Positions 1-53,587 of a stretch of DNA of 64,000 nucleotides are shown piece by piece; the stretch's first letter is position 1, and each line of letters opens with the position of its first letter. This DNA comes from Anaerolineae bacterium. Its GTDB lineage: Bacteria > Chloroflexota > Anaerolineae > B4-G1 > SLSP01. Below the pieces are notes generated by a model. That model worked only from the letters and a program-made list of their open reading frames with translations, was not told the origin of the DNA and searched no databases. A program made the translations under genes and the position numbers. Location: positions 132,498 through 196,497 of the forward strand of contig JBNGDL010000002.1 in assembly GCA_049975205.1 (NCBI GenBank), written 5' to 3'.

Positions 1-2493
1 CTCTTTGCCGGAGCGCCGCTGTTGGCAAACTCACAGGTGGGCGCGCTCTACCCGTTGAACTGGGTGCTCTGGCTGATTGCGCAGCCCTCGCTGGCGGGGA
101 TTGCCCGCGTGCTTCATTGGAGCGTGATCGGGCACCTCTGGCTTGGTGCGCTGAGCGTCTATATGCTGAGTCGCCGGTTGGGGTATGGACGTTGGGGCGC
201 AATGTTGGCCGGCCTCATCTACGCCGGCAGCGGCTTCTTGGGCACCCATAGCGAGCATCTCAATCAGCTTCAGGCTCTAGCGTGGCTGCCTCTGCTCTTG
301 CTGCCCCCTGTGAATTGGCGTGGAGACCACGGGCTCGGTTTCCTGGAGCTACCGCGACCACTGTCGATTGTCGCGTTTGCGATGATCTTGCTTGCAGGGC
401 ACACTCAGATGGCTTTCATCGCGTTGGTAGCACTTGCGGGGTGGCGCCTTGTCGGGGTTGGGCTCATCTTCTCCAGCGGTCGACGCGAGAGATACAGGAT
501 CTCTGCCCAGACATGGCATAATCTAGGGAGGCTTGCGCGCCGGTGGTTTGCTCTGCTCCTTCCGTTTGGGCTCGCATTCCTAGTTGCCGCCGCCCAGCTT
601 GTGCCGACGATTGAGCTCGCCGCGCTGTCGGGTCGAGGGGTCGGCCTAGATTGGCGTGAGGCTGTGTCTTTCTCCGTGGCGCTTTGGGAGGCCCACCGTG
701 CGTTGCTGCCCCCATACCTTGCAGCGCCGCTCTATCCCGAGGGCGTTGCCTACCTGGGGATCATGGGCTTGCTCCTCGCGATCGCCGGTGCCTGGGTCGC
801 GTATAGGCGTCGCAACGCCGTGGGGTGGGGTGCGGTTGCTCTGGTTGCCCTTGGCATCTTCTTGGCTCTGGGAGGCTACAACCCTCTCTACTTGCTCCTG
901 GTTCGAGCCGGCGTGCCCGGTCTGGCGCATTTCCGTGCCCCAGCACGTTTCCTGGCGCTTTATGGGCTGGGGGGTGCGTTGCTTGCGGGCCTGGGCGCAC
1001 AAGGGGTCACGAGGTGGGTTGGACGTCGGCAGGGGATCGGACGACTTGTGCCGCGGTTTGCTCCTGCTGGGCTGGTTGTGGTGCTCGGCGCGGAGCTACT
1101 GCTCTCGGCCGAGGCTCTGCCTCACGCTGATGCGACGGCATCCCGGGCCTACACTGACCTGAGGCCTGCGACGGCACACCTTGTGGCGGCGTCTCAGGCA
1201 GCAGAGCAAGGCGGGCAGCCGACCGCCCGTTTTCTGAGCATCTCGCAGATGCTCTTCGAGGTGGGGGATAAGGCGGAGATCGAGGCCGTCTACGGGGACG
1301 CCTTGTCCCCGGACGCGATGTTAGCCTACCTGGTGGCTGCGAAACAACGAGACATTCTGGCGCCCAACCTCTCTTTAGCCTTTGGTGTATCAGCCGTGGA
1401 CGGCTACGATGGGGGTCTGCTGCCGTTACGCCACTATATCGCTTTCTCTGAACTTCTGCTCCCTGGTGGCACCCTCGATGGCAGACTTCGCGAGAACCTG
1501 CGCGAGATCCCCGACCAGCGATGGCTAGACCTCCTCGGGGTTCGCCATCTGCTCACAGACAAGACGGGCGACGTCTGGCGCGACGGCATCTTGTATGATC
1601 GCCAGTTTCAGCCGACGTTGGCGCCGGGTGAGGCTTTGAGGGTGGGGTGGCTTCCCGATGATTTCCTTGCCGATGGTCTGGCTTTGCTTGCAGAGGGCAC
1701 CGGCGGGGAGGTCACCCTAGACCTGAACGATGGACGCGTGATTCAGCGCTCGTTTGAGAGCTCTGCGGAGGGTGACGGGCCACAGTGGGTTCGCTGGGAC
1801 GAGCCGGCCCTGGTCACCGCGCTCGAAGTCCGTGCCTCGTCTGAGGGCCTTCAGCTCTTCGGGGCAAGCTTGTGGGATGGGCGGGTCGAGGCCTTCTATC
1901 CGCTCGTCCTGTCGGAGTCCTTTCGGCTCGGGCACTCAGGAGACGTCAAAATCTATGAGGATCTGACGCCGCCGGCTCGTGCGTTTCTCGTGCACGGGTG
2001 TCAGGTGACGACTTCGGATTCCGAGGCGTTGAGGCTAATGCGGGATCCAGTGTTCGATCCCTTCACGACGGTTGTACTGATGGAGGACCGCGGCGTCGAT
2101 GCGGAGCGGTGCTATGACCTCGATGGCGCTGCAACATTGGGTGAGGAGCGGGTTTCGGTCAGGTACGAAGGGGGTCGAGTTGTGGTCGACGTGGTGGCTG
2201 CCGACCCAGGGTATCTGGTGTTGACGGATGCTTGGTACCCCGGGTGGCGGGCGAAGGTGAGCGACGCCAGCGCGGCTGCAGAACGGATTCGCACCACCGC
2301 GGAAGGGACGGGTTCAGGGCCTACCTCACCGTTGCGGGCGGATCTTCTGTTTCGGGCCCTGCCCATCGATCCAGGAGCGTGGAAGGTTGTATTTGAGTAT
2401 GAGCCCCGCGCTCTGTATGCCGGCTTAGGGCTGAGTGTGCTTGGGATTTTCGGCCTTCTGGTATATGCTTTCTATACAAATCCCAGGACTTGA
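1..2493 (+). CDS. YfhO-like polytopic membrane protein (putative GT-C type glycosyltransferase), 5' end cut by window edge
   Basis: The frame is open from base 1 (LFAGAPLLANSQVGALYPLNW...), so the listed TTG at 22 is not a real start. There are many hydrophobic segments in the first ~380 aa. The C-terminal 'LTDAWYPGWRAKV...FRALPIDPGAWKVVFEYEP' plus a final TM helix is the pattern I associate with the YfhO family. Confidence 0.6.
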   Translation, partial: LFAGAPLLANSQVGALYPLNWVLWLIAQPSLAGIARVLHWSVIGHLWLGALSVYMLSRRLGYGRWGAMLAGLIYAGSGFLGTHSEHLNQLQALAWLPLLLLPPVNWRGDHGLGFLELPRPLSIVAFAMILLAGHTQMAFIALVALAGWRLVGVGLIFSSGRRERYRISAQTWHNLGRLARRWFALLLPFGLAFLVAAAQLVPTIELAALSGRGVGLDWREAVSFSVALWEAHRALLPPYLAAPLYPEGVAYLGIMGLLLAIAGAWVAYRRRNAVGWGAVALVALGIFLALGGYNPLYLLLVRAGVPGLAHFRAPARFLALYGLGGALLAGLGAQGVTRWVGRRQGIGRLVPRFAPAGLVVVLGAELLLSAEALPHADATASRAYTDLRPATAHLVAASQAAEQGGQPTARFLSISQMLFEVGDKAEIEAVYGDALSPDAMLAYLVAAKQRDILAPNLSLAFGVSAVDGYDGGLLPLRHYIAFSELLLPGGTLDGRLRENLREIPDQRWLDLLGVRHLLTDKTGDVWRDGILYDRQFQPTLAPGEALRVGWLPDDFLADGLALLAEGTGGEVTLDLNDGRVIQRSFESSAEGDGPQWVRWDEPALVTALEVRASSEGLQLFGASLWDGRVEAFYPLVLSESFRLGHSGDVKIYEDLTPPARAFLVHGCQVTTSDSEALRLMRDPVFDPFTTVVLMEDRGVDAERCYDLDGAATLGEERVSVRYEGGRVVVDVVAADPGYLVLTDAWYPGWRAKVSDASAAAERIRTTAEGTGSGPTSPLRADLLFRALPIDPGAWKVVFEYEPRALYAGLGLSVLGIFGLLVYAFYTNPRT

Positions 2494-29309: not shown

Positions 29310-30371
29310 CTAGACGACGAAAATGGGACTGGTGAAAATCCACCCGACGCGGCGAGCTTTGAATCTTCGGTAAACCTCAATGCGATAGATTCCAGCCTCT
29401 GCGGAGGTGTAGGTCAAGCTGTGTCCCACCGCTTTCTGGATTACGTCCCCGTTCTTCAAGAGGTGGATCTCGCCCGAGGCCGGCAGCGTGACTGTGATGT
29501 TGATAGCACCTAGCCGCCGCAGCTCCTCTCCAGGAACTGCTGAGGCTGACCCGCTCTCCATTCGGAATCGAAACCCTCGCGTCGTATGCGGTAGATCGTA
29601 GCCCACCCACGTACGCCCAGCCCGAAGGGCATTGTAGATCAGCTGTTTGTCGGTATCCACATCCCCCGTGAGCGGCTCCTCCGTGAGTACATGGGTGTTA
29701 ACACAGCGGAAGAGATAGTCATAGGGTAGGATCTTGCGCTGAATGGGACCCCACGTGTAAGTGGTGCCGTGGGCATCCGCGCCGCCGAGGGCGCCGATCC
29801 GGTATCCTTGGGCCAGCAACTCGTCCCAGAGGCGGAGTGTTCTGCGGTAGGGCCCGCGAATGCCCCATTCGGGCCTGAAGGCGTAGATCACGGCTGCGAG
29901 CCTGCTCCAGAGCAAGCCTTTGAACTCTGACATGTAGTTCCAGATCTCTATGCCGTGAATGTCCTCTGGTGGCCAATAGGACCACGGAATGGCAGCTAGA
30001 TCAGGGCTGATCCGGCTCCCTTTCTCGATGGGGTGCGCGATGTAGCAGGCACCGTCGCGGCTGCGGGCTGCCTGGATCAGCGTCCGCGTGCTGCTGAAGG
30101 CGTATGGAGCCATTTCGTGCTCGGCCCCGTAAATCAGTAGGTGGTTAGCCTGCGGGGAACGGCGCACGTTGTGCACCTCTTCGCCTGAGAGAATCAGCAC
30201 CTGGTCATGGTACGTCTCCAGACCTACCGGACGGACGTTGTGATCGGTGACGATCACGAAATTGAGCGCAGCGGCATTCGCCGCCGCGGCGATCTCACGG
30301 TAGGTGGCTGCGCCGTCGGAGTAGACGCTGTGAACGTGAGGATTGCCGACGTACTCCCGATAAGTCTCCAT
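29310..30371 (-). CDS. PHP-domain metallohydrolase (CehA/McbA-like)
   Basis: The N-terminus 'GNPHVHSVYSDGAAT..NFVIVTDHN' carries the HxH motif. Later His/Asp motifs are 'IAHPIEKG' and 'LGGADAHG'. There is a beta-rich C-terminal domain. Confidence 0.6.
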   Translation of the reverse strand: METYREYVGNPHVHSVYSDGAATYREIAAAANAAALNFVIVTDHNVRPVGLETYHDQVLILSGEEVHNVRRSPQANHLLIYGAEHEMAPYAFSSTRTLIQAARSRDGACYIAHPIEKGSRISPDLAAIPWSYWPPEDIHGIEIWNYMSEFKGLLWSRLAAVIYAFRPEWGIRGPYRRTLRLWDELLAQGYRIGALGGADAHGTTYTWGPIQRKILPYDYLFRCVNTHVLTEEPLTGDVDTDKQLIYNALRAGRTWVGYDLPHTTRGFRFRMESGSASAVPGEELRRLGAINITVTLPASGEIHLLKNGDVIQKAVGHSLTYTSAEAGIYRIEVYRRFKARRVGWIFTSPIFVV

Positions 30372-30391
30372 AGTGCTCTTAGGCAGCCTTG

Positions 30392-30757
30392 CTAGAGCTC
30401 TCGGTGGTAAACAACAACGACTGCCGCTTGGTCGCCTCGATTATGGAAGCGCAGAATCTCGTCGATCTCCTCTGCCGTGCATCCCAGGAGTGCCTTCACC
30501 TCCGCGTCTCTCTTCTGTCCGTCGACCGTGCAGATGACGCCTGTCAAGCGGCGTGATGGAAGGGTGCCAATCCAGACGTCGATGCCGTCGCCGTCAATGG
30601 CGCCTGTTCCCTTCAAGTAACCGTAGTCCAGGGGATAGGTGACGGAGCGATGCCGAGGATGTCCAGATCCCTTGGGCCGGTCGATGACGATCTCGGCTGT
30701 TTCGATGATCTGCCGGAGTTGCTGCTGGAATCTTTGCGAGAACCTCAAATCGTTCAT
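30392..30757 (-). CDS. Short inorganic pyrophosphatase-like protein
   Basis: 'YPLDYGYLKGTGAIDGDGIDVWI' resembles the family I PPase 'YPxNYGFIPxTxxxDGDPxDVLV' core. At 121 aa it is about two thirds of a normal PPase. Confidence 0.45.
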   Translation of the reverse strand: MNDLRFSQRFQQQLRQIIETAEIVIDRPKGSGHPRHRSVTYPLDYGYLKGTGAIDGDGIDVWIGTLPSRRLTGVICTVDGQKRDAEVKALLGCTAEEIDEILRFHNRGDQAAVVVVYHREL

Positions 30758-33202: not shown

Positions 33203-33475
33203 CGTATCGTTTCCTTTGATATCGCCACCAGACGATATCCACAACAAGGCCCCGGCGTAGCACCGGGCCCATCCTGATTATAGCCGATCCGGGTCAGCAG
33301 ACAATGCTTCGCGGCGCTCTGCACTGCCTCCGGGACAACGGTGCGGGACCGGAGCCCTGCGCTTGAGTATTCCCGGCGCCTTCATAGAATAACACGAACA
33401 GACCAAGATTGTGCGTAATGCGACAGGGGCGGCGGGGTTCGAACCAGGATTCTGCTGAAGAGAGGGGGCTGATTG

Positions 33476-34564
33476 ATGAGACCAAGAGAGCGCGTACTTG
33501 CGATTCTAGACCGCGAACCTGTGGATCGGATCCCGGTCGACCTCTGGCACACGCCTGAGATCGTGGACATGCTGATTCAGGCCACCGGCGCCAGCGACGA
33601 CTTCGAGATGTGGCATCGCCTCAACCTGGATAAGATTGTCTGGGTCTTTATGGACTATCGGTCAGAGGCAGACGAAACTGCTGGCTCGCAGGTGGGTGCG
33701 CTAGCGACGGGAGAGCTGACGATGTGGGGCGCGGTGTTGCGCGACGTGGAGGCGGGTGAGGCTCGCTACCAAGAGACAACCACGCCGCCGCTGCAGGGCT
33801 TAACGTCACTTAGCGAGTTGGATGACTATGCCTATTGGCCCGATCCAGATCGCTTCGACTATGCAGCGGCGGTGGCCTTGGCCCAGAAGGCGCGCGAGCA
33901 TGATTTCGCCGTGATCGGGCCGTGGGTCTCGTGCTTTGAGATCTACTCGCAACTGCGGGGCATCGAGCAGTCCTTAATGGATCTTGCTCTCGATCCTGCA
34001 TTGGTCGAGGCGACGCTGGATCGCATTGAGACGATACAGACGGAGATGATGCATCGGTTTCTGTCCGAGGCGGCGGATCTCGTCGATCTGGTCTTCATCA
34101 GCGATGATATTGGAGGTCAGAACGGTTTGCTGATGTCCCCGCAAATGTGGCGCCGCCACCTCAAGCCCCGGCTCACGCGTTGGTGCGATCTGATCCACAG
34201 CTATGGTGTCAAGGTCTTCTATCACACAGATGGAGGCGTCGGTCCGGTCATCCCCGAGTTGATCGAGGCCGGCATCGATGTGCTGAACCCTATCCAGCAC
34301 GCGTGCCCCGGTATGGAGCTGGAGCAACTGGCTGAGAAGTACGGTGACCAGATCATCTTCCACGGTGGCGTGGACAACCAACAGGTGCTGCCGTTCGGCA
34401 ACGTGGAAGACGTCCGTGCCGAGACTCTGCGCTGTCTTGAGACGCTGGGCGCCGGTAGGGAGGGCTATATCTGTTGTTCTTGTCACAACGTGCAACCAGG
34501 GACGCCGCTTGCCAACGTCATGACGATGATCGAGACGGTGCAGAACTGGGAAGGCGGTCGCTGA
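33476..34564 (+). CDS. Uroporphyrinogen decarboxylase (URO-D) family protein, methyltransferase-like subgroup
   Basis: 'RERVLAILDREPVDRIPVDLW' at the N-terminus, then 'DLVFISDDIGGQNGLLMSPQMWRRHLKP', 'FYHTDGGV' and 'LNPIQ'. This is the typical URO-D/MtaA-like layout. The ATG at 33476 follows the listed TTG. Confidence 0.65.
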   Translation: MRPRERVLAILDREPVDRIPVDLWHTPEIVDMLIQATGASDDFEMWHRLNLDKIVWVFMDYRSEADETAGSQVGALATGELTMWGAVLRDVEAGEARYQETTTPPLQGLTSLSELDDYAYWPDPDRFDYAAAVALAQKAREHDFAVIGPWVSCFEIYSQLRGIEQSLMDLALDPALVEATLDRIETIQTEMMHRFLSEAADLVDLVFISDDIGGQNGLLMSPQMWRRHLKPRLTRWCDLIHSYGVKVFYHTDGGVGPVIPELIEAGIDVLNPIQHACPGMELEQLAEKYGDQIIFHGGVDNQQVLPFGNVEDVRAETLRCLETLGAGREGYICCSCHNVQPGTPLANVMTMIETVQNWEGGR

Positions 34565-34618: not shown

Positions 34619-37600
34619 TCAGCGCAACGGCAAGCGGAGCGTAGCTCTCAACGTTAGGCGGTCGTTTTCGACCGATCCAGGATCCTCTGGCGTCACTAGC
34701 AGTCGATCGAGCGTCTCTGGGTCGTACCATCCGACCCCGATGCGATAGCTTCCCGGGGCGGCCTCTGAGACGTCGAACTCTATTGTCTCGCTGACCACCT
34801 CACCGGCGACCCAGAGGGTGGTTGGGTAGGTCCAGTCGCGCGGCATCGCATCATCTTGACGAGCGATCTGCTCGCTCGACGGGTCGTAGAGATGGACAAA
34901 GCGCTTGTAATCGACCTCTGGAGTCTTGCGAGCGCGCCACCAGAGCGTCAGAACGAGCGTTTGACCTCTTTGGTTCTCCTCAACAGCGTAGCCCAAGAGC
35001 TCGATAGTCCTACCGAAGGTGGCGGATGTCGGATGGGCCATCTCCGGGGCAGTAAAGGTCCTCGGGCGGGGCACGACGACCATCGAGGCGACCGTCTCGC
35101 ACTGGACGATGGATGTCTCGCCCTGCAGCGTCAGGGCCAGGTCATAGGACCCTTCGGGCAGGCGCGGCGGAAGTGCAATCTCGACGGGGGATGCGATCCA
35201 GGCAAAAGGGGGCCACGTTGTTGTTGGACTCCCTGCTGCCAGTGCCTTCTCTGTCGTCCCCACGATGTCGCCGCCCGGACCTGTTAGTGACCAGGTAGCC
35301 TCGATGTCCTCTGTGGGTTGGCCCCGAGCGTTCCACTCGGCGCGGAACCGCAGGTTGTTGCCCTCCTCCAACTTCGCGGGTAGATCCAGCCCGAGGAGCG
35401 CGACCTCGCCGGCCTGGCAGATAGTCGCAGGCCCGGGAGACACGTGCTCGCAGCACGATGGGCCGATGTCGTGGTATGTGGTGGCCTCGAGCCGGATGGG
35501 GACGTCGGCTTCTCCTCCACCCTCCATGGTAGCAAGTAGATAGGTCACGATTCGCAGCGTATAGGTCCCGGGGGCTAAGCCCTCAGGAAGGAGAAGCAGT
35601 CTATAGTCAATGACCTGCTCCCCCGAACGCCAGAGGGTCGTCGGTAGATAGCCATACCCGGGCTGGTCGTCGCGGGCGGCAATCTCGCGTCCCTCGGCGT
35701 CGATGAGCCGGAGAGAGAGCCGCCAATTGCGTGGGGTCCCTTGGGTAGACCACGTCATCCAGACTTGAAGCTCACCGAGTCTTGTCTGGCTGGTCTCGAC
35801 GCTGTGTAAGGTCAGATCGCGGAACTGGGCGATTTCGGGGGCGTTATCTGAGAGGGATGGCCCTTGAGGCACCCGGATGGCGCCTACATACAGCGTCCCC
35901 ATTGTCCTCCCGTTAGGAGTGTGCGGGGGTAGCTCCGCTCTTCCAGCGTATAGCCGAAGCTGAAGCAGATAAAGGCCCCGCGAGAGATCCGCTGGCAGCT
36001 TGATCGACACCCGGGTCTGGGGTTCCACCGTTGCGGCAGCCTCGGCTACGGCGTAGTCGATGCCGTGACGTGGTTCAGCAGGTGAGACGAGGCGTAGCGT
36101 TGCGGTCAGGGGAGACTGCGTGAGAGCTTCCCAGGAGAGTGAGATGTCCACCGTCGTACCCGGTCGGCTGACTTCGGCTGAAACCTCAACATCCTCCAAT
36201 CGAGCCAAGCCGAAGTCGATGGGCCCTTGGTGAGGGTAGGGCATCTGCTCAAAGTCGAAGAAGACAGCGGGTGCATCTTCCGGAGTCTGCAGTACTAGCG
36301 AGGGGAGGGTCGCCAGCGTGAGGGCGCCCAGCGCCCACATGATGCCCTTTGCCACAGGCGTGAGACGGGGGCGCCGGCGCTGGGCCAGGACGGTCCACAG
36401 CGTCAAGACAGTGGCACCTGCAAATGAGATGATGGCTGCGCCCCGTTGGAGGGGCGTTGCACGCAGGCGTAACTCGACGGTATGCTCCCCGGGGGGCAGG
36501 TCGAGTGCGAGCCTGCCGGAGCCTACTATAGGATAGGTGTCTACGGACTCTGTGTCCGATGTCGCTTGCCAACCGGGCCACCAGTTGAGCGGGAAGGCGA
36601 CGGCTACCGGCCTGTCAGTATTCAAGGTGACGTGCCACATCTGCTGGGTCGGACCTCGCCTCAGTCGCTCTGCATGCAGTTGTGCCGCATCCTCAGCGAT
36701 GACGCTACCTTCTCCGTCCACGACGGCTTCAGAGATGTAGAGACGAGGCACGACATCTCGGGGTAGGTACTCGTGGCGGATCGTCGTTCCGATGTTGCCG
36801 GTGAAAGTCTCATAGAGCAGGAGGTTCTCACGGCTTACATCCTCTTCATCGATCAATAGCCTCTCGGGATGGAGTCCCCACAAAGCTGAGGCGATGAGAA
36901 GAGCGATGCCTGCCGTCGCACACAACCCACTGATGCGGCGTGCTGTCCTTGGCGGGACGCTATGAGCCCACAGTTCAGGCTCCGCAATCGCGCCTGTCAC
37001 GATGGCGGCGAAGAAGGCCTGTATTGAGAGAAACCGCCAGGGGAACTGGGTCAGGGCTAACAACGGTAGGTGATCCCACAGCGGTTTGGAGATAGGCGTG
37101 ATCATCACCGTAGCCAGCAGCAACTCCAAGAGCAGCACGATCCCGTGACGCTTTGTTCTGGATGAGCCCGAGCCGGGAGCCTTCAGCAAGCCGACCGCAA
37201 GGGTCAGACTCCCGAGGAGGGCTAGCGCCGCCTGGACCAATCCCATCGAGAAGGGCCCGGCGCTGGTGACTGTCCTGGCGACGCTGTAATCAAATGCCAG
37301 TTTCGGCTGTACGAGATCGACTCCTCGGAAATGGTTGCTGTAGTGGAAATAGCCCTCGGTGAAGGCGGGGCCTAGTTGTGCATACTTGGTCTCCAGCAGG
37401 GCCGGCATCCAAAACCAGGCGGTCAGGATGATGCCGCCAACCAGCGCGGCGCCGATGGCGGCAAGCGCGTGCCAATGAGATCTGGCATCTGTGCGCGTGC
37501 GAGATGACTCAACGTGACATATGGCGTCGTCTCCCTCGATAGGAGCAGGGGGGCGCGTCATGATCATCGCGAGCCCATAGAGAATGGCAAAGGGAGAGAA

Positions 37601-38218
37601 GATCATCGCCGACACGTTGTGTGTCAGAATCAGCGCCCCGTAGGAGAGGGCTCCCATGAGGATCCTGCCTGGTCTCGGGTGTTCGGCGATCCGGTGCAGT
37701 GCCCAGAGGATCAGAGGATACCAGACAAAGGCATAGAACTCGGACATCGAGTCGCCCCGTACGTAGACGTTGACGAGATGGAAGGGTGCAAAGGTGTACG
37801 CGGCGACTGCCAGCAGCCTGGCTGAGGGCTTGGTGAATACTTCGCCGGCCCAGAGGCCCATCGTCACGGCAGCGAGGATGAACCCGAGGGTCTGGGTACT
37901 CTGGATGGCCGAAAGGACGTTAACGCCCAGGAGCATCAGGCCACCGCTTACGTAGTAGGGCAGGGCGGCATAGTGGTTGAAGAAGGGGTAGCCCAGGTCA
38001 TAGGCCGCGTGATCCATCCAACGTGGCGGAAGAGCCCCGTGACGCAGGTTGTCTGCCATCGCCACTGTACGTTGGAGCAAAAAGGGGCTATCGCCGCCGC
38101 CGCGCGTGTTGACGATGCCGGGGCCCCATAGCGGCGCCGCGGCGAGTAATGCGCCAAGCAGAGCCAGCACGAAGGTGAGGCGTCTAGGCCATCGACTTGA
38201 TTTGATGCGGGGCGTCAT
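34619..38218 (-). CDS. Giant polytopic membrane protein, PTPS-related/COG5617-like (putative GT-C glycosyltransferase) with 4 tandem C-terminal beta-rich modules
   Basis: The N-terminus 'GGGDSPFLLQRTVAMADNLRHGALPPRWMDHAAYDLGYPFFNHYAALPYY' matches my memory of the PTPS_related membrane family. About 13 or more TM helices lie in the first ~640 aa. Four repeats of a ~110-aa module follow (see findings). Confidence 0.6.
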   Translation of the reverse strand: MTPRIKSSRWPRRLTFVLALLGALLAAAPLWGPGIVNTRGGGDSPFLLQRTVAMADNLRHGALPPRWMDHAAYDLGYPFFNHYAALPYYVSGGLMLLGVNVLSAIQSTQTLGFILAAVTMGLWAGEVFTKPSARLLAVAAYTFAPFHLVNVYVRGDSMSEFYAFVWYPLILWALHRIAEHPRPGRILMGALSYGALILTHNVSAMIFSPFAILYGLAMIMTRPPAPIEGDDAICHVESSRTRTDARSHWHALAAIGAALVGGIILTAWFWMPALLETKYAQLGPAFTEGYFHYSNHFRGVDLVQPKLAFDYSVARTVTSAGPFSMGLVQAALALLGSLTLAVGLLKAPGSGSSRTKRHGIVLLLELLLATVMITPISKPLWDHLPLLALTQFPWRFLSIQAFFAAIVTGAIAEPELWAHSVPPRTARRISGLCATAGIALLIASALWGLHPERLLIDEEDVSRENLLLYETFTGNIGTTIRHEYLPRDVVPRLYISEAVVDGEGSVIAEDAAQLHAERLRRGPTQQMWHVTLNTDRPVAVAFPLNWWPGWQATSDTESVDTYPIVGSGRLALDLPPGEHTVELRLRATPLQRGAAIISFAGATVLTLWTVLAQRRRPRLTPVAKGIMWALGALTLATLPSLVLQTPEDAPAVFFDFEQMPYPHQGPIDFGLARLEDVEVSAEVSRPGTTVDISLSWEALTQSPLTATLRLVSPAEPRHGIDYAVAEAAATVEPQTRVSIKLPADLSRGLYLLQLRLYAGRAELPPHTPNGRTMGTLYVGAIRVPQGPSLSDNAPEIAQFRDLTLHSVETSQTRLGELQVWMTWSTQGTPRNWRLSLRLIDAEGREIAARDDQPGYGYLPTTLWRSGEQVIDYRLLLLPEGLAPGTYTLRIVTYLLATMEGGGEADVPIRLEATTYHDIGPSCCEHVSPGPATICQAGEVALLGLDLPAKLEEGNNLRFRAEWNARGQPTEDIEATWSLTGPGGDIVGTTEKALAAGSPTTTWPPFAWIASPVEIALPPRLPEGSYDLALTLQGETSIVQCETVASMVVVPRPRTFTAPEMAHPTSATFGRTIELLGYAVEENQRGQTLVLTLWWRARKTPEVDYKRFVHLYDPSSEQIARQDDAMPRDWTYPTTLWVAGEVVSETIEFDVSEAAPGSYRIGVGWYDPETLDRLLVTPEDPGSVENDRLTLRATLRLPLR

Positions 38219-38234
38219 GACGCTAGCCTCTCTG

Positions 38235-40280
38235 TCACGGCGCCGCCACGATCACCGGAACCTCGACGGCGTCGCCCACGGGGTTGCCGGCGGCATCCAC
38301 CGTTGCGAGCCCGGCACCCGTCTCGGCGTGGTAGAGGCCCACGCGCAGCGTGTCTCGCTGTGGCAGAGGCGCGACGCTCGGAATCCGGTGTGAGTCCTGG
38401 ATTAGGTCTCCAGGCCGCCAGAAAGAGGTCCGAAGGTGCCCAAGGCCCGGCTGGGCATCATCTTGAGTGATTCGCTCGCCGTCGCGAAGATAATGGACGA
38501 AGACTGTGTAATCATTGGTGATAGGTTTTGTGGCCTCCCACCAGAGTTGGACGACGACGCCCTCGCCCGCCGGCTGGACTAGCGCGGCTCGCAGGCCAAT
38601 CCCCTTCTCAAAGGTCGCGATGAGTGGCGGTACTGGCGGTCTGGCTCTGCTCGTGACAATGATTGCTGTCGAAAACGGTTGGGGATCGAGGTCTCCCTGC
38701 GCCAGCGGGCCCTCGGCAACCTGAAGGTAGGAAGGATGGGAGAGGCTCGGCAACACGTCAGGTTCCCAGCTCCGGTAAGGCCAGGCGGCAAAGAGCACAT
38801 CTGCGTTAACGGCTAGCCCCTCAGGGAGTGGCAGGAACCCCACATCTGACTCAGGAAGCAGGAAGGGGATCGCCGCCCACTCCTCCCAGATCTCGCGGTC
38901 CAGATAGATGGCGGTATCTCCTTCGGCGCTGTGCAGCATCCTGTCTCCCGTCCATCCTTCTCCCCTGAACGCGTTGATTTGCCCCACCAACTCCACCGGC
39001 CCGGCCTCAAACCAGTGGTAAGCAAGCGGGTTGGATGCGTACCGTACGAAGTAGTCGTACGTGGTGCTGACCAGCCCCACTGCAACCATAAGATAGGGCA
39101 CGCTTGCCAAGCCGATGACCAGCCAACGAGGAGGAGCAGCTTGTCCCACATAAGCTCTGTTCATCAGGAGGGCTTGGAACCAATCGAGACCCACCGCCGT
39201 GAGGAGGGCGGCAGTGGGGAGCACGCCGACCCCTCTGAGAAAGTGGGGCGCATCTTCAGCGAGCAGGGTGGGGATAGCCATCACGGCTGTCCAGAGGAGT
39301 GGTAACGCCAGGGATGCCTCGCGGCGGCCCCGCCCGATGGCAACACCGACCCCTAGCACGAAGGCAAGGCCCAGCGCTGGACCCCACACAGGACGCCACG
39401 CCAGGTTGTGCCGCCAGATACGATCGCCGCGTATCGTGAACATGCCAAGAGTCCTGAAGAGGTGCTGCCCCAAGGTCCTCCAGACCTGGCCTTGGTGGAT
39501 CTCCGGGCTAAAGACAGAGACCTGCCCGCTCCGCGCAAGAACCGTCTCCGGGTACGCCAGCGTGTAGATGCCGAGAGGGAGCAGCATCACCAGGGCTGTC
39601 CCGACCGCAAGCAGGGCGCCCCGCCAGTGCTGCGCGAGGTGCCGGCGATGGCAGGCAAGACCATAGATGAGGAAGGTGGCAATAGCGACTGGCGTGAACC
39701 GCGCCGCGATATACGTGTACCAGCTGACTCCGTAGAGAAAGCCTGCCGCAACCCAATGACGGCGCCGGCGGGTCTGGATGGCCTTTGCGGCCTGGGACAG
39801 ATAGAGTGCTGTGAAAAGCGGCAAGAGGACGGCGCGAAAACCCACACGGCTCAGATGGACGTGCCAGAGCGTGACCGCGAGTACGGCCAAGGCCCAGAAA
39901 CCAACGCGACGGCCCCAAAGGGTTCTCGCGAGGTCGTAAGTGGCTGCAAGGGTGAGGATGCCAATATACACCGAGGGCAACCTAACGGCGATGGGACTGC
40001 GGCCTAGGATTGCGACTGCGCCGGCGACCAGATAGACGAAGAGAGGCTCGCGACCGTTGTTGGCCTCAAAGTAGAGCGGCAGATGCCCCTCCAGTACCTC
40101 GAGGGCGTCCAGACCGTGGTAGGCTTCGTCGTGGTAGAGTCCGGGCGGAACTTGGCCAATGCCCGGTAGTCGGAGACCGAGCCCCAGGACTATGACGCCC
40201 AGCACTGCGAGCTGGATCCTCCAAGATGAAGCCTGTCGCCGTCTCTGGTATGGCCCGGAGATCGCTGCCCCTCCCTTCAT
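38235..40280 (-). CDS. Glycosyltransferase family 39 / ArnT-PMT-like membrane protein with one C-terminal beta-rich module
   Basis: 'PPGLYHDEAYHGLDALEVLEG' is the DE-type first-loop motif of GT-C/GT39. There are many TM helices. The C-terminal 'VVVQLWWEATKPITNDYTVFVHYL..QDDAQPG..TSFWRPGDLIQDSH' is homologous to the repeats of the downstream gene. Confidence 0.7.
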   Translation of the reverse strand: MKGGAAISGPYQRRRQASSWRIQLAVLGVIVLGLGLRLPGIGQVPPGLYHDEAYHGLDALEVLEGHLPLYFEANNGREPLFVYLVAGAVAILGRSPIAVRLPSVYIGILTLAATYDLARTLWGRRVGFWALAVLAVTLWHVHLSRVGFRAVLLPLFTALYLSQAAKAIQTRRRRHWVAAGFLYGVSWYTYIAARFTPVAIATFLIYGLACHRRHLAQHWRGALLAVGTALVMLLPLGIYTLAYPETVLARSGQVSVFSPEIHQGQVWRTLGQHLFRTLGMFTIRGDRIWRHNLAWRPVWGPALGLAFVLGVGVAIGRGRREASLALPLLWTAVMAIPTLLAEDAPHFLRGVGVLPTAALLTAVGLDWFQALLMNRAYVGQAAPPRWLVIGLASVPYLMVAVGLVSTTYDYFVRYASNPLAYHWFEAGPVELVGQINAFRGEGWTGDRMLHSAEGDTAIYLDREIWEEWAAIPFLLPESDVGFLPLPEGLAVNADVLFAAWPYRSWEPDVLPSLSHPSYLQVAEGPLAQGDLDPQPFSTAIIVTSRARPPVPPLIATFEKGIGLRAALVQPAGEGVVVQLWWEATKPITNDYTVFVHYLRDGERITQDDAQPGLGHLRTSFWRPGDLIQDSHRIPSVAPLPQRDTLRVGLYHAETGAGLATVDAAGNPVGDAVEVPVIVAAP

Positions 40281-40299
40281 CGAGTTCTGGCGCTACCGA

Positions 40300-41115
40300 C
40301 TAGCTGTGGATGAGGGTTCCGGTGGAGATCCCTTCGGGATCGAGTAGGGCCTCTCTAAGGTTCCCGGGTGTCAATCCCGTCATGATGCGCACCCGCACTT
40401 CGGGTAGCTTCTCGACGAGCTCGACCATTCCCTCAACCTTGTCAGCCATGCCACCCGTGACGTCGGTGTAGGCAGAGCTCCGCAGGTGTTCCTTGACCTC
40501 CGGGAGCGTCTCAGGGGTGATGGTCGGGATCACCTGGTGTTCACCGTCGAGCACACCGGGAGCATTCCCTAACAGCAGGATCCATGTCGGATGAAGGTAG
40601 GTGGCCAGATGAGCGAAGAGCTCTTCAGTTGAGACAATGGTACCCCCCAACTTCTGATCGAAGGCGACATCCCCAAAGATGAGCGGCACCAGGCCGTGTG
40701 CCAGCGCTCGCCGGATGGGTCCTAGCTCCAGGCTGACGAGGGCACCAGCATCGGCAAGTGCCGACGCCAAAGGCTGCAAGCTAAGAACTGGAACGCCGGC
40801 GGCGATAAAGGCGTTCAAGACCAATCGATCGAGCTGCAGAGCGGCTGCACTGACCCGCGTGAATCCCTGCCACGCCTCGGCAGAGTAGATGCCTTCGTGC
40901 GTACCGTAATGGCTTGCCTCCCAGTGGCCAAAAGACCCCGAGCCGTGTCCTAGCACCAGACGAAGTTGCGAGGCCTGCGCACGTGCTTCAGCCAGCTCGG
41001 TTGCGAGTTGCTTGATGATGCCGCGACGCGCTGTAGAGCGACGTTGCTTATCGGTAATCAGAGATCCACCGAGTTTTACAAAGAAGAGCGGGCCAGGAGC
41101 TGCTTCCGCCTTCAC
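40300..41115 (-). CDS. ipk: Isopentenyl phosphate kinase (amino-acid kinase fold)
   Basis: 'FVKLGGSLITDK' and 'LVLGHGSGSFGH' are present, plus a C-terminal 'DVTGGM'. I prefer the GTG start at 41115, which forms a GTGA overlap with the mvk stop. The listed ORF start at 41187 runs 76 nt into mvk. Confidence 0.75.
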   Translation of the reverse strand: MKAEAAPGPLFFVKLGGSLITDKQRRSTARRGIIKQLATELAEARAQASQLRLVLGHGSGSFGHWEASHYGTHEGIYSAEAWQGFTRVSAAALQLDRLVLNAFIAAGVPVLSLQPLASALADAGALVSLELGPIRRALAHGLVPLIFGDVAFDQKLGGTIVSTEELFAHLATYLHPTWILLLGNAPGVLDGEHQVIPTITPETLPEVKEHLRSSAYTDVTGGMADKVEGMVELVEKLPEVRVRIMTGLTPGNLREALLDPEGISTGTLIHS

Positions 41116-42050
41116 GAAGATCCTACCTGTGTCTGCCAGACGTGGGCTGCGCCGGCCGAGATCAACGCTTGCCTGACCGACGCACACTCGTCCTCAACGA
41201 GGGCGATGATGTTGCCGCCCTGACCGGAGCCTGTGAGCTTGGCGCCCAAGGCCCCAGCGTCCCGTGCTGCTTCTACTAGCCGATCAAGCTCGGGCAGCGA
41301 CACTCCCATCTTGGAGAGTAGCTCATGGTTCTCAGTTAGGAGGACGCCTAGAGCTCGGAGGGCGCCCTGCTCAGCCGCGGCCCGGGCTGCTCGCGCGATT
41401 GCGCCGATGCAGTCGAAGACGATGTCGTAGTAGCTGGGGGTGGCGTGCCAACGTCGACGTACCTCCACGACGGCCTCGCGTGTCGAGCTGGCGATCCCGC
41501 TATTTGCGATCAGGAGATGGAACGGGGTATGAATGGTGAAAGTCTCCGGCGGAGCGCCCTTCACAAAGTAGACGGGTTGCTCCCACGCGATCACTGTGTT
41601 ATCGATGCCGCTCGGTGTGCCATGGTGAATCTTCTCCACCTCATAGGTCATCTCGCTTACCTCCTCGGCGGTGAGCTCAGTGCCGAGAGAGGCCGCCAGG
41701 GCGCGGGCCGCTGCTGCGGTGATCGCGGCGCCGCTGCCCATGCCCGAGGCGATGGGTAGGTCCGATTTGAGGGTGAGCACAGCGTCTGGCTCGGGAAGCC
41801 GTAGTCGGTCGAGGACCAGGCGGACGATTCGACGAAGAGGGTCCTCGGCCTTAGTATCGGTCAGGGTTAGGTCCCGCCGGAGGTCAAGGGCTCTGATGCG
41901 CAGCCCCTGTCCCGTCGGGCCGGGTTCGACACGGGCACAGGCCCGCATGTCGCTTACCGGCACCGCAATGGCAGGGCGACCGTAGACGACGCTGTGTTCG
42001 CCGCACAGGATCACCTTCCCCGGGGCCGTACGTTCGACCGTCGTGACCAT
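41112..42050 (-). CDS. mvk: Mevalonate kinase (GHMP family)
   Basis: 'PGKVILCGEHSVVYGRPAIAV' and the GHMP motif 'PIASGMGSGAAITAAAARA' are present, plus a C-terminal 'KLTGSGQGG'. Confidence 0.85.
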   Translation of the reverse strand: MVTTVERTAPGKVILCGEHSVVYGRPAIAVPVSDMRACARVEPGPTGQGLRIRALDLRRDLTLTDTKAEDPLRRIVRLVLDRLRLPEPDAVLTLKSDLPIASGMGSGAAITAAAARALAASLGTELTAEEVSEMTYEVEKIHHGTPSGIDNTVIAWEQPVYFVKGAPPETFTIHTPFHLLIANSGIASSTREAVVEVRRRWHATPSYYDIVFDCIGAIARAARAAAEQGALRALGVLLTENHELLSKMGVSLPELDRLVEAARDAGALGAKLTGSGQGGNIIALVEDECASVRQALISAGAAHVWQTQVGSS

Positions 42051-42056
42051 AGCCCG

Positions 42057-42932
42057 CTAACCCAGATACATGATAGCTACCACCGTGAGACCCCAAAGGA
42101 CGATATTGGCCTGAGATGGTCGGTCGGTGAGGAGGACCTCATCCGGCGCAAGCGTGCAATGCTCAGCATGGATAAGGTACATATACCGGAAAAGCCCATA
42201 GATTACGAAGGGAATTGTCAACATCATCGCATGGTCCGCGGGTAAGTTGGCCGCAGAGAAAGTGTATAGGGCGTACGCAAGAATCGTGGAGGCCGTCACC
42301 ATGTTGATGAGCTGATCCAACAGGGGCTGGGTGTACTGTTTCAGGATCGGACGGTGGTTTTCGGCCTCCTCCCGAAGCATAACCAACTCCCCGCGCCGCT
42401 TCGAGAGGCCGAGGAAGAGAGCCAAGAGCGTCGTACAGATGTAAAGCCAGGGTGAGAACCGCTCGGCATCGACCAGCGGGACGCCAGCTCCCACGCGCAG
42501 GACGAAGCCTGCTGCGATCGCCATAACGTCTATCAGCACGATGTGTTTGAGCAGGAAGGAGTAGGCCAATTGCAGCACGAGATACCCACTGAGGATCAGG
42601 GCGAAGTCCCGATCGAGCCATATAGCAGCCGCAAAGGAGCCAGCGCTTAAGATGATGGCAGCTGTTATCGCAAACCTAGGCGTCAGCTGTCCCGATGCGA
42701 GGGGCCGCTGTCGTTTCTTCGGGTGTAGCCGATCCTTCTCGAGGTCCACCACGTCGTTCACCGTATAGACGACGCCGGAGACCAGACAGAAGAGGACGAA
42801 ACCGATCAATGTACGCAGGGTGTACGTCACGTCAAAGAGCTTGAGATCAAAGATGAGGGCCGCGAAGATGATCGCGTTCTTTGTCCATTGATGCGGCCGC
42901 ATGGTCTTAAGAAGGGCACGAAGGCTTTTCAC
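42057..42932 (-). CDS. UbiA-family prenyltransferase, decaprenyl-phosphate phosphoribosyltransferase-like
   Basis: 'MRPHQWTKNAIIFAALIF' at the N-terminus and 'NDVVDLEKDRLHPKKRQRPLASG' (NDxxDxxxD). There are about 8 TM helices. The resemblance to the Rv3806c-type subfamily is from memory. Confidence 0.65.
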   Translation of the reverse strand: MKSLRALLKTMRPHQWTKNAIIFAALIFDLKLFDVTYTLRTLIGFVLFCLVSGVVYTVNDVVDLEKDRLHPKKRQRPLASGQLTPRFAITAAIILSAGSFAAAIWLDRDFALILSGYLVLQLAYSFLLKHIVLIDVMAIAAGFVLRVGAGVPLVDAERFSPWLYICTTLLALFLGLSKRRGELVMLREEAENHRPILKQYTQPLLDQLINMVTASTILAYALYTFSAANLPADHAMMLTIPFVIYGLFRYMYLIHAEHCTLAPDEVLLTDRPSQANIVLWGLTVVAIMYLG

Positions 42933-43037: not shown

Positions 43038-43065
43038 ATAATAGCGCGTTCGACGGGATTGACAA
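43038..43065 (-). promoter_or_regulatory. Candidate promoter of the ubiA-mvk-ipk-GT operon
   Basis: On the minus strand: TTGTCA (43065-43060), a 16-nt spacer and TATTAT (43043-43038). The -35 overlaps the -35 of rpoC P1 on the other strand. Confidence 0.4.
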
Positions 43066-43404: not shown

Positions 43405-43448
43405 TCTCTTAGGGGCGTTTAGGACCGATCCACTTGGGGGGAGGAAGA

Positions 43449-47768
<4,320 letters not shown>

Positions 47769-52924: not shown

Positions 52925-53587
52925 CTAACAAACGTGCCTGACGGAAATCTCCTCTTCGGTCATATCGATGATACAGAGAGGATGGACATTGACAATATGC
53001 GTTCCCTGGTATCGGGTAAGCCATGCCTCGCGTCCGTAGCGATGGGTGTGCCCGTGAAGGAGCAGGCGTGGTCGATAGGTCTTGACCAGATCCCGGAAAG
53101 CCGAGAAGCCCTGATGCGCACCGGTGGGTTGATCGTGGATCCCCTTAGGGGGTGCGTGCGTGATTAGGATGTCAAGACGGCTCCCGTGGAGCGCGCGCTG
53201 TAGCAGCAACTGAGGCACCAAGCGCCCCGCGCGCCATCTCATCTGCCGCTGAGTGTACTGGTGGGGCGCGCCGGGCTGATACCTGATTGAACCCTCCAAG
53301 CCAGCTACTACCAAGTCAAGCTCTCGAACGTAGACGGCGCGGCGGTCGACATTCGTCCACCCGCCGGGAGCGTGCAGTGTCCGTTGCTCGCTCAGTCGCT
53401 GTGGTCGGTCGTGATTGCCGTGGACGAAGTAGGCGTGGCGCACGCGCGCCTGTGTCACAATGAACTCCATGTAGCTGTAGGGCAAGTCGCCGCACCCGAG
53501 CAGGAGGTCAATGTCGCCCATAACTCTCGTGAAGTCGGCCCGATACAAGGCGGTCATGACCTCATCGCTCATGGCTAGGATTCGCAC
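52925..53587 (-). CDS. Calcineurin-like metallophosphoesterase
   Basis: 'MRILAMSDE', 'GCGDLP', 'VHGNHD' and 'LLHGHTH' are present. Confidence 0.75.
   Translation of the reverse strand: MRILAMSDEVMTALYRADFTRVMGDIDLLLGCGDLPYSYMEFIVTQARVRHAYFVHGNHDRPQRLSEQRTLHAPGGWTNVDRRAVYVRELDLVVAGLEGSIRYQPGAPHQYTQRQMRWRAGRLVPQLLLQRALHGSRLDILITHAPPKGIHDQPTGAHQGFSAFRDLVKTYRPRLLLHGHTHRYGREAWLTRYQGTHIVNVHPLCIIDMTEEEISVRHVC

Follow-up and report, generated by a model that had tools for sequence, protein, structure and literature searches.

A unit of five genes on the minus strand (42932-34619) encodes, in the order of transcription, a UbiA-family protein, a mevalonate kinase (MK), an isopentenyl phosphate kinase (IPK), a GT-C glycosyltransferase and a large membrane protein. 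It lies in a stretch of 64,000 nucleotides from an Anaerolineae bacterium of the phylum Chloroflexota (GenBank assembly GCA_049975205.1, contig JBNGDL010000002.1, positions 132,498 to 196,497), here called the window. Judged from its sequence, the UbiA protein is very probably a polyprenyl-phosphate 5-phosphoribosyltransferase. Comparison with related genomes shows that the evolutionarily stable unit is UbiA-MK-IPK and that the GT-C pair is an extension of one lineage. The features of the unit are the following.

42057-42932, minus strand: UbiA gene, 291 amino acids, GTG start; polyprenyl-phosphate 5-phosphoribosyltransferase-like, of the clade of decaprenyl-phosphate (DPPRS) and polyprenyl-phosphate (PPPRS) phosphoribosyltransferases
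41112-42050, minus strand: MK gene, 312 amino acids; TIGR00549, GHMP N and C domains
40300-41115, minus strand: IPK gene, 271 amino acids; NF040647 IPPK_Arch, AA_kinase domain
38235-40280, minus strand: GT-C glycosyltransferase gene, 681 amino acids; PMT_2 / GT39-GT83-like membrane domain followed by extracytoplasmic domains, a beta-sandwich last
34619-38218, minus strand: gene of a large GT-C-like membrane protein, 1199 amino acids; PTPS_related/YfhO-like N-terminal domain, two further transmembrane helices and several beta-sandwich domains
43038-43065, minus strand: sigma-70-like promoter match, TTGTCA-16-TATTAT, 10 of 12 positions; a consensus match only

The genes are tightly packed. Six nucleotides separate the UbiA stop (42057) from the MK start (42050), the MK stop and the IPK start overlap by four nucleotides as GTGA (41115-41112), and the gaps ahead of the 681- and 1199-amino-acid genes are 19 and 16 nucleotides. 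The longest open reading frame (ORF) for IPK starts at 41187 and gives 295 amino acids; the GTG in the overlap with the MK stop gives 271. These junctions had been described in an earlier note on this DNA and were confirmed when re-read from the sequence, and the family assignments of the five genes in that note were upheld by Pfam and NCBIfam searches, for the 1199-amino-acid protein by way of its orthologues and paralogues. The promoter match lies about 105 nucleotides upstream of UbiA, within a divergent intergenic region of 500 nucleotides common to rpoC. Because no gap exceeds 19 nucleotides there is no room for internal promoters. Terminator-like consensus matches inside the unit are weak, with at most four G-C pairs and less than about 1.5 standard deviations above the shuffle mean, and their count is about that expected from shuffling. 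The small gaps, the upstream promoter match and the weak internal terminator matches make it likely that the five genes are co-transcribed.

The UbiA protein and the two large membrane proteins

The UbiA protein matches PF01040 (79 bits, residues 31-256) and scores above the cut-off of the NCBIfam model for decaprenyl-phosphate phosphoribosyltransferase, NF008977 (270 bits, cut-off 234), and of NF008978 (210.5 bits, cut-off 207). Apart from the DPPRS-related models, no UbiA subfamily model exceeds 43 bits, as shown by heme o synthase (33 bits), the geranylgeranylglyceryl and digeranylgeranylglyceryl phosphate (GGGP/DGGGP) types (29 bits or less) and UbiA itself, the 4-hydroxybenzoate prenyltransferase (24 bits); the MenA model gave no match in the NCBIfam scan. 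When the protein was compared with all PDB sequences, the best match was Rv3806c of M. tuberculosis, aligned end to end (8j8j; E 7.7e-36, 127 bits, 33% identity), followed at a distance by ApUbiA (E 3.7e-5, 27 bits). A crude hydropathy scan found at least seven strongly hydrophobic segments, and the alignment to Rv3806c, which has nine transmembrane helices, is full-length. The protein is a single domain without a fused HAD phosphatase domain.

The active site of Rv3806c is known in detail. R22, N73, D77, K87, R90, Y138 and K143 belong to the Mg/pyrophosphate site, Q135 binds the ribose, and K28, Y70 and Y157 bind the 5'-phosphate; the phosphoribose-binding positions are not conserved in ordinary UbiA prenyltransferases (PMC10994848). 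All 13 functional residues checked in the window protein are retained (R12, K18, Y56, N59, D60, D63, D67, K73, R76, Q121, Y124, K129 and F143). The Mg/pyrophosphate site, an NDxxDxxxD motif with a cluster of lysine and arginine, is made up of R12, N59, D60, D63, D67, K73, R76, Y124 and K129, while K18, Y56, Q121 and F143 correspond to the phosphoribose-specific K28, Y70, Q135 and Y157. The change from tyrosine to phenylalanine at the last of these positions is also found in some mycobacteria. Across 59 homologues the residues of the phosphoribosyl pyrophosphate (PRPP) site are invariant, save for Q121, which varies between Q and N. The equivalog score, the PDB match and the residues thus place the protein with the Rv3806c-type enzymes, as the earlier note had suggested, and not with the quinone, heme or DGGGP prenyltransferases. 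The function of the gene is already named by NCBI's models. A full-text search found no open paper tying Chloroflexi to decaprenyl-phosphate phosphoribosyltransferase.

Both large proteins have abundant orthologues in Anaerolineae metagenomes. The 681-amino-acid protein matches PMT_2 (50 bits, cut-off 26). The 1199-amino-acid protein matches PTPS_related (PF10131) and YfhO (PF09586) below the thresholds; orthologues and paralogues of it score above them. From 60-sequence alignments AlphaFold2 gave confident models, with a pLDDT of 88.7 for the 681-amino-acid protein and 89.6 for the 1199-amino-acid protein. In Foldseek the best match of the smaller model is ArnT (5ezm, E 5e-9), together with AglB, PglB, ALG9/12, Pmt4, EmbA/B and AftA; the ArnT, AglB, PglB, ALG and PMT matches have a probability of 1.0, and EmbA/B and AftA match weakly (E 3e-5 to 2.5e-3). 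As modelled, this protein is a generic GT-C-A fold. The larger model has about ten transmembrane helices and about five beta-sandwich domains, and searched as a whole it matches mostly the beta-sandwich repeats of complement and transglutaminase proteins. The mycobacterial AftD is the sole GT-C enzyme among the 50 best matches listed for it, all with E below 1e-5, and the AftD match is weak (TM-score 0.25). The models, the fold matches and the family matches in orthologues all bear out the earlier view that the two downstream proteins are of GT-C type.

Two further properties are shared by the pair. In the 681-amino-acid protein D51-E52 is invariant and stands past the first transmembrane helix (12-35), and in the 1199-amino-acid protein D43 is near-invariant and stands past helix 9-30; these acidic residues would face outward. 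The C-terminal beta-sandwich domains of the two proteins are homologous (BLASTP E 4e-9, hhalign probability 98.9%). By analogy with the carbohydrate-binding modules of Emb, AftD and ORF12, this common domain may bind the acceptor glycan.

For the 681-amino-acid protein the public gene call (P0001) has 656 amino acids and starts from an internal GTG, which would cut part of the first transmembrane helix; the orthologue alignment favours the ATG at 40280 as the start. One more YfhO-like membrane protein of GT-C type is encoded at the edge of the window (22-2493, plus strand), distant from the UbiA genes; towards its C-terminus it shows weak similarity to the 1199-amino-acid protein, at residues 500-600 of the latter.

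Gene order in related genomes

To score synteny, tblastn and a simple clustering of ORFs were applied to contigs of metagenome-assembled genomes (MAGs), in a UbiA-centred set of 63 GTDB loci and in an IPK-centred set of 80 metagenome loci with an IPK identity of 42-61%, about 55 of them with sufficient upstream sequence. Clades of UbiA are those of a crude neighbour-joining sketch from the locus-derived sequences, because the list of UbiA homologues, all 68% identical or more, was too shallow for a deep phylogeny. The nearest UbiA relatives, with 80% identity, are found in Anaerolineae/Thermoflexales MAGs. The earlier note had asked whether the five-gene order is conserved, and in the GTDB loci it was found in close relatives, where the full arrangement of rpoC, then UbiA-MK-IPK-GT39-1199aa, then GH1-QueA is present (L001 to L006, L008, L011, L037 and L065).

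A sister subclade has the order UbiA-DUF2207-GT39-1199aa without MK and IPK (L007, L009, L010, L013, L014 and L064). In L009, L013 and L064 no more than about 2.2 kb separates UbiA from the GT-C pair, and the DUF2207 gene alone lies between them; in L064 the upstream flank is rearranged too, with the link between UbiA and the GT-Cs kept. L009 carries three further GT-C genes ahead of UbiA in the same orientation, so that UbiA is immediately downstream of one of them and the locus has five co-directional GT-C genes in all. The DUF2207 membrane protein, of about 560 amino acids, occupies the exact position of MK-IPK in these six loci and in L012 (11110-12795 in L009) and may serve glycosylation as an accessory.

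Outside this group the kinases stay with UbiA and the GT-Cs do not. Three other Chloroflexota clades of UbiA have UbiA-MK-IPK without GT-C genes, beside TlyA and LepA (L017 to L019, L027, L024, L032 and L049), and a Chloroflexaceae MAG has UbiA-IPK (L033); the flanks differ. Among the roughly 55 informative IPK-centred loci, 21 have a tight UbiA-MK-IPK trio and about eight more have it with an insert or a longer gap, while MK-IPK alone was found in four and IPK alone in about 22; the GT-C pair is present only in the closest relative (L066). Adjacency of UbiA and the GT-Cs is limited to the window's clade, where UbiA identity is about 66% or more. The remark in the earlier note that kinases in such an operon are not the usual arrangement does not hold for this phylum, because the trio is common and conserved in Anaerolineae, mostly without GT-C genes.

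Inserts between MK and IPK are of several kinds. In L133 (3841-4854) and L145 (3856-4869) the insert encodes a MenA-like UbiA paralogue, well below all curated cut-offs and downstream of the DPPRS-like gene. In L076 (3929-4747), L081 (2213-3013) and L086 (4077-4928) it encodes a GxxExxY / PD-(D/E)XK_3 protein, which suggests a recurrent insertion site between the two kinase genes. In L105 it encodes mevalonate phosphate decarboxylase (MPD), preceded by a cupin gene and with MPD beside IPK. The idea that the insert of about 1 kb is in general the missing MPD therefore holds in L105 only.

In other Anaerolineae GT-C genes (PMT_2, PTPS_related) form batteries of four to six, accompanied by the gene of a conserved protein of about 185 amino acids, and no UbiA is nearby (L147, 6047-21122; the JGI contig of P0114).

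The unit is flanked on one side by divergent rpoC, an ECF sigma factor and bactofilin, and on the other by a URO-D-like gene, GH1, QueA, an InPase-like gene and a PHP gene. The rpoC gene (43434-47768, plus strand) has no rpoB upstream and is followed by the ECF sigma factor, a putative anti-sigma factor and the bactofilin gene, an order kept in relatives L001-L011, L037 and L065. The URO-D-like gene (33473-34564, plus strand) is convergent with the 1199-amino-acid gene; it is missing there in all related loci, where GH1 is directly next, and looks like an insertion specific to the source genome. Far from the unit, nine consecutive plus-strand genes (3406-28755) encode GAF-domain signalling proteins with HAMP, dCache and PAS domains, an unusually long tandem array of paralogues that includes a 1511-amino-acid protein with five GAF domains and a 2194-amino-acid hybrid histidine kinase with five to six GAF and two receiver domains. 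Rfam and tRNA scans of the window gave no matches.

A proposed lipid-linked pentose for the GT-C pair and the alternatives

The evidence leans, if only slightly, towards an isoprenoid-themed housekeeping operon to which one lineage has added two GT-Cs that probably use a PRPP-derived polyprenyl-phospho-pentofuranose. The core layer, UbiA-MK-IPK, would be ancient and is widespread in Anaerolineae and other Chloroflexota. At the cytoplasmic face UbiA would transfer 5-phosphoribose from PRPP onto polyprenyl phosphate, giving polyprenyl-P-ribose-5-P, from which a phosphatase encoded elsewhere would strip the 5'-phosphate. The lipid-linked sugar would then be flipped to the outer face by enzymes also encoded elsewhere. 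In the added layer, present in the window's clade only, the two downstream GT-Cs, presumably co-transcribed, would move the pentofuranose to a wall-associated envelope glycan that the common beta-sandwich domains might hold. The sugar would be ribofuranose by default, since no epimerase is linked. LCP proteins occur in Chloroflexi other than Dehalococcoides, and Chloroflexus is cited among the Gram-negative LCP carriers with Gram-positive-like wall features, for example polysaccharide cross-linked to peptidoglycan (PMC2632651).

That the UbiA product feeds these two GT-Cs has moderate support, drawn from the gene neighbourhood. UbiA and the GT-Cs have stayed linked through two independent rearrangements, namely the replacement of MK-IPK by DUF2207 and the change of the upstream flank, and L009 adds more GT-C genes; both argue for a coupling. 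In all PPPRS systems that have been characterised, the enzyme is functionally tied to GT-Cs encoded next to it (PMC11127046).

A number of results weigh against this coupling. The adjacency is limited to one clade, so inherited gene order may explain it. No UbiA lies near the more distant orthologues of the pair (40-51% identity), which occur in GT-C clusters, alone, or next to LysM proteins and one PMT-like gene. Neither GT-C has sequence similarity to characterised or solved GT-Cs when single sequences and 60-sequence profiles are compared with all PDB chains, and since the fold matches are generic (ArnT, oligosaccharyltransferase, ALG, PMT, Emb), homology does not reveal the donor sugar. 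The partner enzymes that such a pathway calls for are also missing from the neighbourhood. A Pfam scan of ORFs of at least 150 amino acids across the window found, in the operon and among the scanned ORFs, no HAD or PAP2 phosphoribose phosphatase, no MATE, SMR or GtrA flippase and no epimerase linked to the operon.

The same scan covered the DprE1/DprE2-like pair, an FAD-oxidase with a short-chain reductase, and none was found in the operon or among the scanned ORFs. The observation in the earlier note that the operon has no such epimerase and no phosphatase gene was thus confirmed and extended to the scanned ORFs of the window. Across the 63 GTDB loci no phosphatase, flippase or epimerase recurs as a neighbour of UbiA; the recurrent neighbours are TlyA, LepA, a Schlafen/AlbA_2 protein and, in Myxococcota, an Rce1-like protease. 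A trio of GT4, NAD-epimerase and LPG_synthase_TM genes upstream in L017-L019 was not counted as a partner of UbiA because LepA and TlyA lie between. Two further window genes, one with a PHP domain (29310-30371) and one of the Metallophos family (52925-53587), are unlinked and have no tie to the unit. The former belongs to a minus-strand segment downstream of QueA (29310-30757) that encodes an InPase-like protein of 121 amino acids and a weak PHP-domain protein of 353 amino acids; these phosphoesterase-type genes are less than 5 kb from the operon, with a plus-strand gene in between and no tie to it.

The alternative that survives best is a neighbourhood without coupling, which is possible but rather doubtful. 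UbiA-MK-IPK would then be a housekeeping isoprenoid operon; the GT-Cs would be downstream by descent and use other donors, such as polyprenyl-P-mannose or polyprenyl-P-glucose, supplied by enzymes whose genes lie elsewhere, and the product of UbiA would feed other transferases. The restriction of the adjacency to one clade speaks for it, as do the orthologues of the GT-C pair that lack UbiA within 10 kb, the absence of GT-C genes within 5-10 kb in most UbiA-MK-IPK loci, the generic fold matches led by ArnT and oligosaccharyltransferase, and the other YfhO-like protein that the window holds distant from UbiA. On the other hand, UbiA has been kept with the GT-C pair despite the loss of MK-IPK and the change of the upstream flank, the five GT-C genes around UbiA in L009 share one orientation, gaps of 16-19 nucleotides imply co-transcription, and a functional coupling is known from each characterised case of a PPPRS gene adjoining GT-C genes (PMC11127046).

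It is much less likely that the UbiA homologue has a chemistry other than that of DPPRS, with another acceptor or with a role in the metabolism of isoprenoids or quinones; this would account for its linkage to MK, IPK and, in some genomes, the MenA-like gene. In most lineages UbiA is linked deeply to mevalonate genes and not to glycan genes, a MenA-like paralogue stands between MK and IPK in L133 and L145, and no open paper tying Chloroflexota to the enzyme was found. However, the ribose, 5'-phosphate and pyrophosphate residues of Rv3806c are retained and near-invariant, and the equivalog score is over the cut-off.

The two kinases are well identified: MK scores 255.7 bits with TIGR00549 (cut-off 163) and IPK 147.5 bits with NF040647 (cut-off 120), and the IPK motif GHGSGSFGH is kept in relatives. 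The archaeal-type mevalonate route, with mevalonate kinase, MPD and IPK, is described as ubiquitous in Chloroflexi other than Dehalococcoidia, as opposed to a clade with the methylerythritol phosphate route only, and its genes are described as not clustered and normally scattered (Hoshino and Gaucher, PMC6107057). With two pathway genes present and the route ubiquitous in the clade, the kinases are, from their sequences, most likely general housekeeping enzymes of the mevalonate pathway by the MPD route, and a private supply line for the lipid carrier is unlikely. No HMG-CoA synthase or reductase, MPD, IDI, cis-prenyltransferase or polyprenyl-PP phosphatase was found among the scanned ORFs of the window. 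A dedicated module in which MK and IPK supply the carrier for this glycosylation alone is very improbable: the five genes are tightly packed and the UbiA-MK-IPK linkage recurs, but the window holds only two of about seven pathway enzymes, the described ubiquity of the route means that the kinases most likely serve all isoprenoids (PMC6107057), and the sister clade has UbiA and the GT-Cs without MK-IPK.

The proposal in the earlier note of a self-contained module that makes and transfers a polyprenyl-phospho-sugar therefore stands in part. Synthesis and transfer agree with the DPPRS-clade UbiA, the packing of the genes and the GT-C folds. Self-containment was not borne out, because two of about seven mevalonate enzymes are in the window and no phosphatase or flippase is linked, and the GT-C link is confined to one clade.

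A broader proposal is speculative and, on balance, improbable. Anaerolineae and further mevalonate-using Chloroflexota might build a core envelope glycan from a PRPP-derived polyprenyl-phospho-pentofuranose (ribofuranose), assembled outside the membrane by batteries of uncharacterised GT-Cs that share the C-terminal beta-sandwich, and the synthase might be kept with MK-IPK for a co-regulation of carrier flux and donor formation. If true, this would be an arabinan-like assembly line outside Actinobacteria.

Lipid-linked pentofuranose donors derived from PRPP underlie the mycobacterial arabinan, a drug target, and have recently been shown to decorate O antigens and pilins. A DPPRS homologue with the full set of residues, occurring throughout Chloroflexota, would bring this chemistry into a phylum that is little understood and mostly uncultured and whose envelope glycans are barely known. 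The UbiA enzyme, the 681- and 1199-amino-acid GT-Cs and the DUF2207 protein are concrete candidates for experiments. The UbiA-MK-IPK trio is a handy genomic marker and slightly corrects the view of Chloroflexi mevalonate genes as unclustered. Current understanding is not overturned; the unit is a lead into the envelope glycobiology of Chloroflexota.

Comparison with known systems

The unit is plausibly a variant of the known glycosylation systems that use PRPP-derived lipid-linked pentofuranose. In the mycobacterial decaprenylphosphoryl arabinose (DPA) pathway the components are the DPPRS Rv3806c, the phosphatase Rv3807c, DprE1/DprE2, Rv3789 and the Emb/Aft GT-C enzymes. The window unit shares with it a UbiA-fold phosphoribosyltransferase with the same PRPP/Mg site and large GT-Cs with extra beta-sandwich domains, AftD and EmbA/B being among the weak fold matches; in some relatives several GT-C genes follow one another, as in the Emb/Aft series. 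The operon differs in that DprE1/E2, a PAP2 phosphatase and a GtrA/SMR flippase are not linked to it, that its GT-Cs have no sequence similarity to Emb/Aft, that it belongs to another phylum and that it includes mevalonate-pathway kinases. A search of the literature for GT-C enzymes in the Chloroflexota envelope returned mycobacterial papers only.

YfhO proteins belong to the GT-C enzymes and draw on C55-P-sugars at the outer side of the membrane. In the YfhO / CsbB / GtcA systems for teichoic-acid glycosylation in Firmicutes the donor synthase is a GT2 enzyme that uses a UDP-sugar. The 1199-amino-acid protein and its orthologues resemble these systems in matching YfhO and PTPS_related. In contrast to the window unit, the donor synthase in Firmicutes is not a PRPP-dependent UbiA protein, and the YfhO proteins are much smaller.

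The kinases have their counterpart in the archaeal-type mevalonate pathway of Chloroflexi (Dellas et al. 2013, PMC3857490; PMC6107057), of which MK and IPK are equivalog-level members. Unlike the picture drawn in PMC6107057, MK and IPK are here part of a conserved trio with a DPPRS-like gene, which is mentioned neither there nor in PMC3857490.

Pilin arabinosylation in Pseudomonas aeruginosa PA7 depends on the PPPRS PSPA7_6246, a separate phosphatase, DprE1/E2 homologues and the GT-C TfpW (PMC11127046). As in the window, the PPPRS stands alone without a phosphatase domain; in PA7 it feeds a GT-C, as it would in the window. The epimerase and phosphatase genes clustered in PA7 are missing from the window operon, and the acceptor in PA7 is a pilin, whereas no pilin gene is near the operon.

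The three-component system of Citrobacter youngae O1/O2 consists of ORF15, a PPPRS-PRP protein, a MATE flippase and a GT136 GT-C (Kelly et al. 2024, PMC11127046). Unlike ORF15 the window PPPRS has no fused HAD phosphatase domain, no MATE gene accompanies it, and the genes are outside any O-antigen or capsule locus; the window also has two GT-Cs, classed by their PMT_2 and PTPS_related/YfhO matches. The two systems are alike in having a PPPRS gene near one or more GT-C genes and a GT-C with a C-terminal beta-sandwich, carbohydrate-binding-module-like domain; by this precedent the lack of an epimerase would point to ribofuranose. In the window the PPPRS and GT-C genes are part of one unit, with MK and IPK between them.

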